A stretch of 64,000 nt of DNA from positions 16,740 through 80,739 of IMG/VR virus record IMGVR_UViG_3300010885_037407; one strand, 5' to 3'. The DNA is from a virus. A program made the translations under genes and the position numbers. Below, in pieces: positions 39,414 to 61,696 of the stretch (positions within the stretch are counted from its first letter, which is position 1; each line of letters starts with the position of its first letter). The notes under the pieces were generated by a model. That model did not search any database and was not told where the DNA came from. It was given only the letters and a program-made list of their open reading frames with translations.

Positions 39414-39902
39414 TTATTTATTGTTTTTAGCATCTGTATAAACGGTTTTTAGCCATTTAACGAATCCCATTTTTTCGTCTTGTTTGATATTTGGATATTC
39501 TTTGAAGAACTCCATTGCAAATTGATTGAATGTTGAAGCGTCTTTTGCCATTTGGTCAACATCACTCATTGCAGATTCACTTAACTTACTTTCTTTAATT
39601 CCTAATATTGCATTTAATTCAGAAAGAACTAATTTAAGTTTGGTTGGGCTCAAAGTTCTTAAATATGCTAATCTATTATCCATTCCTGAAGATCCTTCAT
39701 ATCCCGTAGCTATCTTAACAGTTAATGGATTGAATTGACTTTGAGTTTTGTGCATAACATTTAAAATCTTTCTCTTATTAGCTTCATTGCCTTCAATTGT
39801 ATTATGAATTTTACTAGCTAAATCTTTTTGTATTGTAGAAGCTTCATTTAATGCTTTTTTTACTTCCTCTTTGATAAGAGCTTTGAATTCAGATGCTTTC
39901 AT
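39414..39902 (-). CDS. Putative capsid-internal protein (shared N-terminal peptide)
   Basis: MKASEFKALIKEEVKKALNE N-terminus shared with at least four other ORFs. Confidence 0.55.
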   Translation of the reverse strand: MKASEFKALIKEEVKKALNEASTIQKDLASKIHNTIEGNEANKRKILNVMHKTQSQFNPLTVKIATGYEGSSGMDNRLAYLRTLSPTKLKLVLSELNAILGIKESKLSESAMSDVDQMAKDASTFNQFAMEFFKEYPNIKQDEKMGFVKWLKTVYTDAKNNK

Positions 39903-39903
39903 A

Positions 39904-40287
39904 TTATAAATTTATGATTTGATATACTTTGGTATGAAGTATTTTTAATTCGTTATTTGATGTTACTAGTAGTGAATTAGAATATTTTGTCCAATCCACA
40001 GAAAATTTAGTATCTAGCACTCCATTGTTTTCTTGACGAATTAACGCATTCAATGAATTGATAGTATACATAGTGTTAGTTTCTTTTTTACGATGTACTA
40101 ACATTGCTGCAGGTAATTGTTTTCTTGTATTACCTTTCTCTACATTGAAACTACATATAAGCTCCGGGCTGTCTTCAATAGATAATATGAAAATTCTTTT
40201 ATACACAACCTCATAAGTTTTATCGATCATTTCTATTGAATTATCGATTAAGTCCTCCGTAGAGAAAACGCAGATTAATTGTATCAA
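39904..40287 (-). CDS. Hypothetical protein
   Basis: 127-aa ORF, TTG start, VHRKKETNTMYTINSLN; late motif at ~40318-40329. Confidence 0.65.
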   Translation of the reverse strand: MIQLICVFSTEDLIDNSIEMIDKTYEVVYKRIFILSIEDSPELICSFNVEKGNTRKQLPAAMLVHRKKETNTMYTINSLNALIRQENNGVLDTKFSVDWTKYSNSLLVTSNNELKILHTKVYQIINL

Positions 40288-40330
40288 AGCTTGTATATAT
40301 TATAAGTGATTTTGTCATATATAAATATCG

Positions 40331-41683
40331 TTAAAACTTTTTTTCTGCTAGAATCATATTATGATAATCTGGACCTATCTCTAATTTTGTTGGAAACTTA
40401 CCTTTTTGTTCTAATTCTTCTTTTATTATTTTTAATACTTTTGCACCATCTCTTTTGTCAAAATCAAACAAAAACGAATCATAGGTATATAATATCAACT
40501 TGGAAGAGTAGTTTGAAATACGTTGGAGTATATTATGAATAACGGCCATGTTTCTTTCGGTTTCATAAGACTGTAAAACATAGTTTAAAAGCTTTGCTGC
40601 ATTCATATCACTGAAAAATGATTTGAACAATTTTCTTCCAAACATTGTTGTTTCAATATAACCATCTTGTTTATATTGATTCCAAAGAAGCTGAGTATAT
40701 TCATGTACTTTGGCAAAGAAAGGTATTTCCAAATACTCCTCTCCAATTCCTCCATATAATTGTTTAAATGAAATTGACTTTGTTTCAGAATATTCTGCAG
40801 GTGTTAAAGTCTCTTTACCAAAATAAAATTTACCTAAATATTCATGCACAGAACAATCTGCTGGAAATTGATAATCGACTAACTCTGCTAGTAGTCTTAA
40901 GTGATATGCATCATAATCAAAAGAAAGCATAAATCCATTTTCTCCAAATCTAGATACAAAAGATGCTCTTGCTCCATTGTCTTTGTTTAAAGCAGCATAG
41001 TTAATACCACCAAATCGATTTGAAGGTCTTCCTGTTGTAGTATAGATGTTATATTCTGTATAAGCAAAGTTATCATATAAAGGTGCTTCATTGAATTTTG
41101 TTTTGAATTGTTCATAGTTTGTAAATAAACCATTTTGTTCTATTTGATAAAGTGAATCCAATATCAAATTGTTGTATTTGTCAAATGCTGGATCTTCTTT
41201 GAAATAATCATATACATCTAAAAATCTTTGAGTAATAGATTGTGACTTTTCAATGTGCTTGGTAATTGGAATAATAGTATTTAAGTTGCTAAACTTTCCA
41301 AAATTTCTAGTAAAGAAATCATGTGCTGGTGTATCAAAGTCATCTTCAATAGGTTGATTCCTATGAAAATATTCTACCATATTAATATCAATTATATTGT
41401 CATGATCAAGAAACCGTTTAAATCGCTTCTTGCCATACACAAATAATTTTCTATCTAAAGGGAATTGTTTAAGAAGCTCTTCTGATAATGGTAAGCCTTC
41501 AGTATGGTTGAAAACTATCATAACTTCTTTGTCTAAATTAACAACATATATATAAATTACTGAAATTGAATCTGTATATACCGGTCTTTCTCCATTACAG
41601 TATGTTGGAACTACAATCCAATCATATGCGCTGCTTTGGTCTAGGAAGGAATCAAATTCTAATTTGGTCTCTATTATTTTCAT
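40331..41683 (-). CDS. Short, divergent family A DNA polymerase-like protein
   Basis: TTGRPSN, motif A DYDAYHLRLLA, motif B K-x3-F-x3-YG, NYVLQS, motif C YTYDSFLFD. Confidence 0.8.
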   Translation of the reverse strand: MKIIETKLEFDSFLDQSSAYDWIVVPTYCNGERPVYTDSISVIYIYVVNLDKEVMIVFNHTEGLPLSEELLKQFPLDRKLFVYGKKRFKRFLDHDNIIDINMVEYFHRNQPIEDDFDTPAHDFFTRNFGKFSNLNTIIPITKHIEKSQSITQRFLDVYDYFKEDPAFDKYNNLILDSLYQIEQNGLFTNYEQFKTKFNEAPLYDNFAYTEYNIYTTTGRPSNRFGGINYAALNKDNGARASFVSRFGENGFMLSFDYDAYHLRLLAELVDYQFPADCSVHEYLGKFYFGKETLTPAEYSETKSISFKQLYGGIGEEYLEIPFFAKVHEYTQLLWNQYKQDGYIETTMFGRKLFKSFFSDMNAAKLLNYVLQSYETERNMAVIHNILQRISNYSSKLILYTYDSFLFDFDKRDGAKVLKIIKEELEQKGKFPTKLEIGPDYHNMILAEKKF

Positions 41684-41690
41684 ATCCTAG

Positions 41691-59948: not shown

Positions 59949-59980
59949 TGTTTATTTAATTTATAATAAATATCTTATTT

Positions 59981-60583
59981 TTATTTTAAAAGATTCCAAT
60001 ATTCAGTGAAATGTTTTTGTCTATCTGCTAAACCTATTGTGCCGCCGTTAACTCTTTTTGTTACTGAAGTTACGGTAGTTACGTCAGAACCTTTATCGCA
60101 TACTGCCCAAAGTTTATTTGATTCAAAAAAGAATGCTGCTGAAGCTAAAGGATATTTTGATGCTACTAAATCTGGATTAGCTACGCAATCTTCCCCGATA
60201 AAAGCACTGAATTTTTCATAATTAGTTTTACCTGTTAACTGAATAAACCCTCTTCCATGAAATTTGAATCCTTCTTTTGAAGCTTCATCTCCATTACCCA
60301 TTCTAGAAGCATATACTCTAGAACCTATTTTTTCTTTTTGACGAGCATAAAGTTCTGATAAATTTCCTGGAAAATATTTACCAAAGATTGTTTTCAATCC
60401 TTGAGCTGAGTAGTTTAAATTTTCATTAACTAATTTAAAATTTCCTGACTCATGAGAGCATTGTGCTAAAAAATGAGCAAGCCTTAAATTAGTAGTAATG
60501 TTAAATTTTTCAGCAGCTGCTGGTATTTGATCTAATACACTATCCGCAATTTTACCTTTTAGTTTTGTTAAGTTCAATGACAT
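59981..60583 (-). CDS. Glycoside hydrolase family 19 endolysin
   Basis: LAHFLAQCSHES, ENLNYS, GRGFIQLTGKTNY, TKRVNGGTIGL.DR. Confidence 0.92.
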   Translation of the reverse strand: MSLNLTKLKGKIADSVLDQIPAAAEKFNITTNLRLAHFLAQCSHESGNFKLVNENLNYSAQGLKTIFGKYFPGNLSELYARQKEKIGSRVYASRMGNGDEASKEGFKFHGRGFIQLTGKTNYEKFSAFIGEDCVANPDLVASKYPLASAAFFFESNKLWAVCDKGSDVTTVTSVTKRVNGGTIGLADRQKHFTEYWNLLK

Positions 60584-60590
60584 AGTTAAA

Positions 60591-61154
60591 TTATTTAAAA
60601 ATTATTTTACCTTTTTCTCCGTTTGGTGGACGGAATCTTTTCATCATAACTTCAATTTTAGCTGAATCAACACCATGAAGGTTTCTTCTAGATAATGTTT
60701 TTACATTTTGTTTATTTGGTTCAAATACAACATATAAAATTTCATATCCATATTTTTCTGCCATATTTTCATATGGAGCTCTTTCCTTATCTGTTAAATT
60801 AGTATTGTCAATAACAATTACACTTTTTTTCATTAGCATATTGTCATTTGCTTTGTTCATACATTCTTTATGTGCGTCATGCAATTTTGAAACATCAAAT
60901 TTATATTCTCCACTTTTTTCAAAATAATTATCTGCTGAACATACTATTGGATTATTTGGTAATTTATTAATAAATGTTGATTTGCCTGAACCAGGTAATC
61001 CTACCATTATAATCAATTGTTTTTTTACTTCTTCATTTAATTGATTAAATGCTGTATGAAATGGATTTGAATATACTTCATGTTGATTGAATTGTTTTTT
61101 CCATCCATTTTCAATATCTTCAAATACTAAATCTAATACGTCTTTTAGTTTCAT
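60591..61154 (-). CDS. P-loop kinase (AAA_33 / polynucleotide kinase-like)
   Basis: MVGLPGSGKST, CSADNYF, AHKEC, VIDNTN, RNLHGV. Confidence 0.8.
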   Translation of the reverse strand: MKLKDVLDLVFEDIENGWKKQFNQHEVYSNPFHTAFNQLNEEVKKQLIIMVGLPGSGKSTFINKLPNNPIVCSADNYFEKSGEYKFDVSKLHDAHKECMNKANDNMLMKKSVIVIDNTNLTDKERAPYENMAEKYGYEILYVVFEPNKQNVKTLSRRNLHGVDSAKIEVMMKRFRPPNGEKGKIIFK

Positions 61155-61696
61155 AGTTTTATATGTTCTGCTTCTGTAGTATGAACTACTTCTAATTTTA
61201 TATTTGGATATTTTACTTTCAATCCTTCTACTGCTCTAACATTTTTAATAGAATCGTCAATAAAAACAATATCATTATATCCTTTTTTTATTTCATTTTC
61301 TATATAATCAGCCTTTCTTTGTGGATTAGCATCTCCTAATGCAACTACATATATATCTAAATTAAATTTCTTTTTAAGATAATTTTTAACTGGATAACCT
61401 AATTGTCTAGCAGTTAATATAGTTGTTTTAGTAGATGAAGAACTAGCTGCTTGTTTCAATAAATCAATATTAGTTTTAATTGGCATTGCTATTTTAATTG
61501 CAGCATTGAATTCGCGAAAGTTAAATGTATCTCCAGGCTTTGCATCATACACTGCAAATTCTGCAGGAGTAAGTATTGATTCCTTTCCTTTATTTTTAAG
61601 AATTATATTTGCCTTTACTTTTGCTAAAGTATCATCAAAATCAAAAATTCTTAATTTCTTTTCTTTTGCTTCTTTTATTAATTTAGTTATACTCAT
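61151..61696 (-). CDS. HAD-superfamily phosphatase
   Basis: IFDFDDTL, ILTAR, K, FIDDS (HAD motifs I-IV). Confidence 0.8.
   Translation of the reverse strand: MSITKLIKEAKEKKLRIFDFDDTLAKVKANIILKNKGKESILTPAEFAVYDAKPGDTFNFREFNAAIKIAMPIKTNIDLLKQAASSSSTKTTILTARQLGYPVKNYLKKKFNLDIYVVALGDANPQRKADYIENEIKKGYNDIVFIDDSIKNVRAVEGLKVKYPNIKLEVVHTTEAEHIKL

Follow-up and report, generated by a model that had tools for sequence, protein, structure and literature searches.

How do proteins with no evident resemblance to one another come to begin with nearly the same 20 residues? The question is raised by a stretch of viral DNA of 64,000 nucleotides, here called the window, which forms the final 64 kb of the 80,739-bp IMG/VR viral contig IMGVR_UViG_3300010885_037407 (CheckV completeness 43%). 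An initial annotation of the window had drawn attention to five open reading frames (ORFs) that share an N-terminal peptide ahead of dissimilar remainders, and had proposed a portable targeting helix fused to interchangeable cargo proteins that are loaded into the capsid and injected. In our analysis this peptide, referred to below as the tag, is on balance probably a long variant of the capsid targeting sequence (CTS) of phage T4, which would load interchangeable cargo into the prohead. We favour this explanation because the tag is N-terminal and portable, is selected as a peptide, is restricted to one phage lineage, ends like a substrate of the T4 prohead protease gp21, and heads genes found in late-type or structural contexts.

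Copies of the tag on the contig

Six ORFs of the contig, five of them inside the window, begin with MKxSEFKKLIREEVKKxLNE, and a seventh (51924-52283) carries a degenerate copy; the peptide consensus is MK[A/V]SEF[R/K]KLIREEV[R/K]K[V/A]L[N/K]E. A hidden Markov model (HMM) of 24 positions was built from the six contig copies and seven candidates were scored on the whole contig. The copies are as follows; the late-type motif named in several lines is an upstream sequence treated further below.

53774-54136, minus strand: tagged ORF of 120 aa, MKVIEFKKLIREEIRRVLNE followed by S; tag coded by 54077-54136; HMM score 54.4 bits
52732-53100, minus strand: tagged ORF of 122 aa, MKIQEFKKLIREEVKKVLTE followed by AQAP; tag coded by 53041-53100; first ORF past the tail tube gene
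52449-52697, minus strand: tagged ORF of 82 aa, MKVSEFRKLIREEVKKALNE followed by NYRD; tag coded by 52638-52697; late-type motif about 22 nt upstream
51924-52283, minus strand: ORF of 119 aa with a degenerate tag recognised by alignment, MDHVEFKRLLKEFAPGVMVLKE followed by VD; late-type motif at 52340-52364
49681-50145, minus strand: tagged ORF of 154 aa, MKATQFKQLIKEEIALVKSE followed by L; tag coded by 50086-50145; HMM score 48.9 bits; late-type motif at 50161-50185
39414-39902, minus strand: tagged ORF of 162 aa, MKASEFKALIKEEVKKALNE followed by A; tag coded by 39843-39902; in the replication block
1828-2115 of the contig, outside the window: sixth copy

The five N-termini listed in the initial annotation (ORFs starting at 39902, 50145, 52697, 53100 and 54136) are all present as quoted, at the first Met of minus-strand ORFs, and the peptide stands at residue 1 in all six contig copies. 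At E<=10 the HMM matched these six alone, with E-values from 7e-17 to 7e-14, and the scan that had been suggested as a check also returned between 2 and 12 matches in each related record. The likeness emerges from a blind pair test as well, which used crude ORF calls (starts at the first ATG, a minimum of 50 aa, no nested ORFs) and a BLOSUM62 score of 30 or more: N-terminal 18-mers reached this score in 24 of 5050 pairs, compared with 1 of 4753 for residues 41-58. As a positive control, two stretches of the T4 genome were treated in the same way and gave IPII and IPIII as a pair.

The weaker variants listed in the initial annotation fared unequally. That at 52283 is a genuine degenerate member: it diverges from the consensus past the first twelve residues, its orthologues in contigs L012 and L021 bear the full peptide, and the closing L-x-E is kept at the same place in all four aligned sequences. 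Those at 51937, 61696 and 61154 were missed by the peptide HMM and resemble a second class of tag beginning MIKLK; if they are tags at all, they fit that class better than the first. Among the full copies, that of ORF 49681-50145 is the most divergent, and its gene has a conserved place directly upstream of a tape-measure-like gene.

Anatomy of the tag

The anatomy of the tag was derived from one sequence for each of 42 clusters of cargo (the protein remainder behind the tag) found among the best database hits described below; since the set was drawn from the best-scoring hits, the consensus is somewhat idealised. Information content is 2.5-4.3 bits at positions 1-20, 1.9 bits at position 21 and only 0.4-0.9 bits at positions 22-36. 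This boundary at residue 20 is not an artefact of the search, because the query profile extended to position 40. Eight positions are invariant in the set, namely M1, K2, F6, L9, I10, E12, E13 and E20. Position 18 is Leu or Ile in 41 of the 42 sequences and position 20 is Glu in all of them, while position 21 is mostly a small residue (A17, N10, G4, D4, S3, V2). The tag thus closes with [L/I]-x-E ahead of a small residue, and the earlier claim of an end of the T4-protease type is borne out in 41 of the 42 clusters. A second motif of this kind, I-R-E, ends at residue 12. Past the tag, Pro is frequent at position 24 and a short stretch rich in Pro, Ser and Thr follows.

In the T4 record (arrows mark the cleaved bond), IPII and IPIII begin with MKTYQEFIAE↓A, the 19-residue propeptide of IPI ends in ITE↓A, and the major capsid protein gp23 is cut at LTE↓A. 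According to passages of one review, gp21 removes the T4 propeptides, which have 10-19 residues; residues 4 and 7 are the main determinants of targeting, and residues 8 and 10 those of processing (PMC9026906). The first twelve residues of the tag follow the outline of the T4 peptide, in that an initial MK is followed by an E-F pair and then by I-x-E. A peptide of ten residues is too short for statistics, and we regard this possible kinship as a lead.

Cargo behind the tag

The remainders behind the tag are unrelated to one another, as had been claimed. Nine tag-removed proteins compared by blastp gave a best pairwise E-value of 0.076. Nine cargo families, built from database hits and covering the cargoes of all six tagged proteins of the contig, were compared as profiles with hhalign, and the highest probability in the 36 comparisons was 2.8%. 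Lacking profile similarity, the families are very unlikely to be ordinary full-length paralogues of one another, a possibility that the initial annotation had itself raised.

The cargoes of the best 120 hits fall into 42 blastp clusters. Their lengths range from 58 to 289 residues (median about 98) and their isoelectric points are bimodal, 20 of the 42 being acidic and 21 basic. The commonest family, F1, to which ORF 52732-53100 belongs, accounts for 29 of these 120 hits and is conserved over the whole protein (63-89% identity); the cargo of ORF 53774-54136 represents family F3, which is present in other contigs. One type of cargo also occurs behind two different tags: in the related record G002 a leucine-rich repeat (LRR)-like protein follows the 20-residue tag (L096:387-791) and another follows a tag beginning MIKLL (L099:1317-1853), the two cargoes being 41% identical (E 2e-31). 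Together with the 42 clusters and the 631 matches at 50% identity reported below, this upholds the claim of a portable peptide with interchangeable cargo.

No cargo behind this tag has a recognisable function. Neither Pfam nor PHROGs gave a significant match when the six tagged proteins and three weak variants were searched, the PHROGs matches being marginal. In the PDB, neither the F1 profile nor ORFs 39902, 50145 and 54136 had a sequence match with a meaningful E-value, and a search of the ESM Atlas with the cargo of ORF 53100 found only a cluster of unnamed viral proteins (score 0.78). Likewise, no Pfam domain was found in the best 120 hits.

Selection on the peptide

Among the six copies, the 60 bases that encode the tag are 58-77% identical, and 70 of 189 identical residue pairs are encoded by differing codons. 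In 134 distinct copies from related contigs, the near-invariant Leu9 uses five codons and Ile10 uses three. Upstream of the ATG, the copies show no alignment beyond the short AT-rich late-type motif. Selection targets the peptide rather than the DNA.

Distribution beyond the contig

A profile of the first 40 residues matched 452 proteins at E<=1, drawn from 3372 candidates in 5.8 billion sequences. In 115 of the best 120 of these hits the peptide lies at residue 1, and the other five have a Met exactly at the start of the peptide. When 1.84 billion cluster representatives were searched exhaustively with HMMER, 631 of them matched at E<=0.001, each standing for a cluster at 50% identity; the top match begins at residue 1 in 144 of the best 150 representatives.

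In IMG/VR, 126 matches were confirmed by tblastn and 79 loci were kept, all 79 of which encode another homologue of this phage group at E<=1e-10. A survey of 185,579 prokaryote genomes, one per species, yielded a single tag match. From the IMG/VR, prokaryote and cluster searches, we conclude that the peptide is confined to one lineage of uncultured T4-like phages, in which it heads hundreds of proteins; the carriers are freshwater myophages. The single prokaryote match (L142; WLOB01000499.1, 3210 bp) lies on a contig binned into a metagenome-assembled genome of the Actinomycetota and could either point to the host or be phage DNA that was mis-binned.

Some ORFs depart from the simple arrangement of one tag and one cargo. 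Database ORFs P0139, P0140 and P0149, and P0013, P0032 and P0211, show either two tagged units in frame or a tag preceded by a small domain of about 58 residues (MIKIPIEIGD...). In the related record G001 this domain stands as a separate ORF of 65 aa (L098:5794-5991), the C-terminus of which resembles the MIKLK tag. Such two-unit or domain-fronted ORFs could be products of read-through, true fusions or wrong gene calls.

Genes for head maturation in related phages

Five long related records were searched, and three of these are rated complete. Each encodes one Peptidase_S77 protein above the Pfam cut-off, and both a gp21-type protease and a gp22-type scaffold are present in all five. Their head modules run in order from terminase through portal, small genes, protease, variable small ORFs and a gp22-like acidic scaffold to capsid. 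In G003, G004 and G005 the stretch from the protease to the gp22-like scaffold gene contains tagged ORFs, and in G005 the orthologue of window ORF 52697 is found there. The window's capsid protein shares 78% identity with that of G001 and 70% with that of G004; its relevant features are:

62430-63998, minus strand, cut by the contig end: gp23-like major capsid gene (phrog_138, E 3e-74)
63936-63947, minus strand: LVTE in the gp23-like major capsid protein, located by alignment with T4 gp23

The remark in the initial annotation that the capsid protein also contains LVTE proved apt, as this motif aligns with the E65↓A66 cleavage site of T4 gp23. In the alignment the capsid proteins of this group read LV[T/Q/I]E followed by A. 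This Glu and Ala share invariant columns with E65 and A66 of T4, which makes the LVTE site positionally homologous to the T4 site.

In two of the related records the large terminase gene seems to be split according to the ORF list, at L090:10-2645 (G004; inserted ORFs of 326 and 391 aa) and at L093:13628-15669 (G001; an inserted ORF of 392 aa). These interruptions suggest an intein or a homing element.

Late-type motif, repeat and variable slots

Of 19 tagged ORFs, 9 have the 8-mer TATTTATA in the 60 nt upstream, as against 39 of 534 ORFs with neither tag (odds ratio 11, Fisher p 6e-6; G000, G001 and G002). Other carriers include the tube, sheath, hub and neck genes, and the motif lies about 10-50 nt before the ATG on the coding strand. 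Because it accompanies these structural genes, we read it as the late promoter of the lineage, and the late timing is deduced from this gene association only. We take this sequence to be the T4 late promoter consensus in reverse complement. The initial annotation had credited several tagged ORFs with a late motif of their own, and it is indeed present for 54136, 52697, 50145 and 52283.

The tail genes between which most window copies lie, and a repeat found among them, are:

54234-56666, minus strand: tail sheath gene (phrog_23, E 1.4e-69)
54144-54197, minus strand: copy 1 of a 54-nt direct repeat (family D4, 94% identity), upstream of ORF 53774-54136
53681-53734, minus strand: copy 2 of the repeat, with a stem-loop at about 53728-53741, between ORF 53774-54136 and the tube gene
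53125-53613, minus strand: tail tube gene (phrog_4542, E 6.5e-23)
50434-51300, minus strand: baseplate hub gene of T4 type (PF12322, phrog_150), the far border of the variable tube-to-hub interval

On the gene strand, copy 1 comprises the 3' half of a stem-loop (which as a whole spans about 54191-54209), a T-run and the late-type motif at about 54145-54170. With copy 1 upstream and copy 2 downstream, ORF 53774-54136 is bracketed by the repeat. The sheath and tube genes are adjacent in T4 and in two cultured phages, Microcystis phage Mel-JY01 and Flavobacterium phage immuto; here ORF 53774-54136 is inserted between them, and four ORFs lie between the tube and the baseplate hub. The interruption of conserved structural gene order described earlier is therefore real.

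Nine related tube neighbourhoods were compared (window 51300-53125 and loci L010, L012, L021, L025, L037, L043, L049 and L057). A tagged gene precedes the tube gene in four of them and the sheath gene does so directly in three. Up to three tagged genes, with differing cargoes, occupy the tube-to-hub interval; one of the nine loci, which ends just past the tube gene, shows none. This interval is a hypervariable slot. A conserved ORF of 180-191 aa starting with MIKLKPIAE precedes the hub gene in seven of the nine arrangements. A Cys-rich ORF of 269 aa was also seen in the interval, in two of them.

Other classes of tag

A second class of tag, of about 10 residues, is MIKLKDILKE-like and ends in L-x-E. 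It heads seven tandem, differing ORFs in G001 and several in G002 and G003. A third class has about 22 residues, MKKQILSEQFRRMQKLAGIINE (MKKQILSEQF[R/K]RMQ[K/F]LAGII[N/T]E), and occurs twice in G002 and twice in phage immuto. The ORFs concerned are:

L098:1622-5063 (G001), minus strand: second-class ORFs
L099:553-1853 and 3631-3999 (G002): second-class ORFs
L100:3191-3811 (G003): second-class ORFs
51362-51937 of the window, minus strand: ORF of 191 aa starting with MIKLKPIAE, directly upstream of the hub gene; not a member of the first class
61151-61696 of the window, minus strand: HAD-like ORF starting with MSITKLIKE, with an orthologue in G004
L095:5110-5508 and 6075-6413 (G002): third-class ORFs
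25061-25456 and 111675-112139 of immuto: third-class ORFs
1803-2318, 103806-104354, 117631-118632 and 118632-118931 of immuto: ORFs starting with ME(N)(T)FDLKKFLVENKLT...

ORF 51362-51937 is a possible member of the second class. ORF 61151-61696 may carry a degenerate second-class tag, since its 56%-identical orthologue in G004 starts with MIKLKYLLKE; the counterpart in G001 has a different, longer N-terminus. ORF 60591-61154 was considered as an orthologue of a MIKLL-tagged kinase of G002 and rejected (E 0.036).

Cargoes of the second class include some with recognisable domains. One matches Tox-ART-HYD1 with 25.6 bits (cut-off 25) and another ADPrib_exo_Tox (PF03496) with 33 bits, and a Zeta/AAA_33-type kinase and a HAD-like ORF are also among them. 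T4 Alt belongs to the same family PF03496 (124 bits) and, according to the T4 annotation, is a packaged and injected ADP-ribosyltransferase, a parallel that counts in favour of capsid targeting.

Five ORFs of Flavobacterium phage immuto (MW353175) start with a diverged version of the first-class tag, about 12 residues long (MKKSQLRQIIKE...), and two of the five are next to the head module. Another N-terminal family of this phage, ME(N)(T)FDLKKFLVENKLT..., is represented by four ORFs of unequal length. The peptide HMM gave no hit in this phage and one unconvincing hit (E 0.03) in Mel-JY01. Immuto is a possible cultured test system. In G002, a stretch related to the third class stands directly behind a first-class-like tag in ORF 108719-109009.

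These observations raise the tentative and rather doubtful prospect of at least two or three portable address tags, all ending in a head-protease site and swapping cargo among them, with an injected repertoire of more than 600 families. Were this true, the repertoire would include ADP-ribosyltransferases, P-loop kinases and LRR proteins, the different tags might set copy number, location or order of release in the virion, and the tag alone would flag injected effectors in uncultured viromes.

Weighing the explanations

If the tag is a capsid targeting sequence, tagged proteins would be made late in infection, and their N-terminal peptide would bind a gp22-type scaffolding core and so be built with its cargo into the prohead. 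The gp21-type prohead protease would then cleave after Glu20, within [L/I]-x-E and a small residue, and perhaps also after Glu12, at the end of I-R-E. The cargo, freed inside the head, would leave with the DNA at infection. The initial annotation had reached much the same view; portability with cargo exchange, the protease-type end and the LVTE alignment stand in its favour, and the amphipathic helix that it had assumed is only weakly supported. 

Several points weigh against capsid targeting. Core binding, cleavage, packaging and injection are all putative, as is the anti-defence action of the cargoes that the initial annotation had proposed, and the window cargoes have no domain recognisable by Pfam, PHROGs, the PDB or the ESM Atlas. 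The Peptidase_S77 protease gene and a gp22-type scaffold gene are both absent from the 43%-complete contig, which ends inside the capsid gene; we infer that this phage has the protease because relatives with 70-78% identical capsid proteins encode it. The tag is twice as long as the 10 residues of T4 and far more constrained, and may have a further or different partner. Its helical hydrophobic moment of 0.24-0.49 is reached by 8-38% of shuffled sequences, so that amphipathicity is not significant. Many tagged genes lie in the tail module rather than the head module, including four of the five window copies. ORF 50145 has Lys at position 18 instead of Leu or Ile, and as it also has a conserved place by the tape-measure-like gene, it may be a tail protein. 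ORF 39902 belongs to the replication block, where the UvsX and gp32-like genes are its neighbours, and it lacks its own late-type motif. The peptide is internal in 6 of the best 150 cluster representatives: three of these ORFs contain two tag-like copies each, with at least one second copy having its own Met, and of the remainder one is a probable wrong start call, one has the tag behind a domain of about 58 residues and one is a repeat protein that is possibly unrelated. Finally, no cultured carrier was found when the 24-residue tag and ORF 53100 were searched by tblastn against GenBank phages, a search in which the low-complexity filter may hide the peptide.

Because of these points, three other explanations stay alive. 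The tag might be a common docking helix that is not cleaved and binds one shared phage or host partner (a chaperone, hub protein, polymerase or protease adaptor), the cargoes acting in the infected cell. Constraint over 20 residues does exceed what passages on the T4 targeting sequence describe as needed (PMC9026906), one tagged gene lies among replication genes, and the isoelectric points of the cargoes are bimodal, not uniformly basic. Yet conservation stops at [L/I]-x-E and a small residue, followed by the Pro/Ser/Thr-rich stretch, degenerate copies retain the closing L-x-E, and tagged genes lie in late or structural regions and between protease and scaffold genes; we therefore consider a docking helix unlikely. 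Alternatively, the tag could address cargo to the tube lumen or the baseplate without being cut by the head protease, as the position of four of the five window copies among the sheath, tube, hub and tape-measure-like genes, the variable tube-to-hub slot of the nine arrangements, and the fixed place of the ORF 50145 family by the tape-measure-like gene would suggest. Such a tail address is harder to reconcile with the tagged genes found between the head protease and scaffold genes in G003, G004 and G005, or with the fact that the end of the tag matches both the head-protease site and the site in the capsid protein. Extracellular contractile injection systems load payloads in such a manner by means of N-terminal packing signals. 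We know of no tail-lumen cargo loading in T4-like phages, and we rate this explanation as quite improbable.

The tagged proteins could also be ordinary paralogues, that is, one small family duplicated and now conserved in its N-terminal helix only, given that the copies are clustered and that small proteins, with a median cargo of about 98 residues, diverge fast. This appears very improbable indeed in view of the range of cargo lengths and the bimodal isoelectric points, the lack of any profile signal in 36 family pairs and the conservation of the whole protein within family F1; moreover, one cargo type occurs behind two tags, and one orthologous cargo with both a full and a degenerate tag. 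Still less can be said for a nucleic-acid element (acting in translation initiation, RNA structure or recombination) of which the peptide is a by-product. The repeated terminator-plus-promoter cassette that brackets one tagged gene would suit it, and shared 5' ends could aid cassette exchange, as proposed for promoter-terminator motifs of T4-like phages (PMC2839356; PMC4122927). This explanation is close to refuted by the differing codons of identical residues, the low nucleotide identity of the copies, the freedom of codon use at Leu9 and Ile10, and upstream DNA in which nothing but the late-type motif is conserved.

Other genes of the window and related phages

Every ORF called in the window lies on the minus strand, and the G+C content is about 31%. 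In the region of the finding, the UvsX-like and gp32-like genes were named by eye from their translations. Two further features belong to the tail block:

44159-44479: baseplate wedge subunit
46809-49661: tape-measure-like ORF of 950 aa

The latter has no PHROG hit, and its label therefore rests on size and position only. Further genes of the window encode head-tail adaptor-like, GH19 lysozyme, AAA_33 kinase, HAD-like and PhoH proteins. By DNA, the closest cultured phages are Mel-JY01 and immuto, in which parts of the sheath and tube genes are 69-70% identical to those of the contig; a literature search for 'Mel-JY01' found no paper. Of the words sampled from a 4.3-kb stretch, 44-82% were present in each of three freshwater metagenome runs from 2017; these runs possibly belong to one campaign, and the best of them is possibly the source sample.

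Significance

Head-borne proteins are normally found only through virion proteomics of cultured phages. They are prime candidates for countering host defences, because they act before any phage gene is expressed. If the tag described here is a loading tag, a motif of 20 residues would pick hundreds of candidate injected proteins from lake-phage metagenomes, and the well-studied T4 tag would gain a longer, highly conserved counterpart for comparison. The locus is also a test case for the shuffling of accessory genes into fixed slots of a conserved structural module.

Comparison with known systems

The payloads of extracellular contractile injection systems carry N-terminal packing signals, and encapsulins recognise cargo peptides; in both, a short terminal peptide suffices to load diverse cargo into a container that is phage-tail-like or of the HK97 fold. 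Unlike the present case, neither has a maturation-protease site, most encapsulin peptides are found at the C-terminus, and both systems are cellular and show no sequence relation to the tag. A literature search found no paper with the 8-residue strings of the tag or with a CTS in aquatic or uncultured T4-like phages, although papers or supplements outside the search may still hold them; it turned up T4 reviews and an encapsulin paper only.

The arrangement around ORF 53774-54136 recalls the promoter early stem-loop (PeSL) elements described at variable regions of T4-like myoviruses, where they mediate modular shuffling (PMC2839356; PMC4122927), in that a repeated stem-loop terminator and promoter motif (53681-53734 and 54144-54197, 94% identical) flanks an accessory gene. 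The corresponding slot before the tube gene is occupied in four of the nine arrangements and empty in three. PeSL promoters are early by name, whereas the motif here is of late type and shared with the tube, sheath, hub and neck genes. The comparison covers one bracketed gene and concerns gene movement, not the function of the peptide.

Giant phages (phiKZ, 201phi2-1 and SPN3US) likewise possess N-terminal propeptides, on head and ejection proteins bound for the head interior, that are removed after Glu at a short motif, sometimes with redundant sites, by a gp21-related protease (PMC9026906). These phages form a different lineage, their cleavage motif is S/A-X-E, and the passages of that review which deal with them mention no portable peptide common to unrelated cargo (PMC9026906).

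The closest parallel is the CTS of the T4 internal proteins IPI, IPII and IPIII. In both systems an N-terminal peptide is common to otherwise unrelated small proteins, starts with MK, contains an E-F pair and has [L/I]-x-E at its end, with a small residue next; the lineage has gp21-, gp22- and gp23-type head genes, and the cargo genes vary between relatives. The tag differs from the T4 peptide in its 20 residues with two possible cuts (E12 and E20), compared with 10 residues in IPII and IPIII and 19 in IPI, and in its far stronger conservation. Instead of the three internal proteins of T4, there are six to seven copies on a partial contig and 2-12 per related record, with hundreds of cargo families, two or three tag classes per genome and many genes in the tail module.

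Passages of earlier work describe the internal proteins of T-even phages as a diverse, defence-countering set in which the CTS alone is conserved (PMC3012670), and present the CTS as a possible evolutionary means for T4-like phages to load various proteins (PMC9026906; PMC3012670). The principle is thus known for T-even phages (PMC9026906; PMC3012670), and it is the 20-residue variant and its scale that appear undescribed. Notable aspects are the length and conservation of the tag, the number of its carriers (631 clusters) and the coexistence and swapping of tag classes. Should the tag prove to be a loading tag, the T4 principle of one address for many cargoes would extend well beyond the T-even phages, and on a larger scale.

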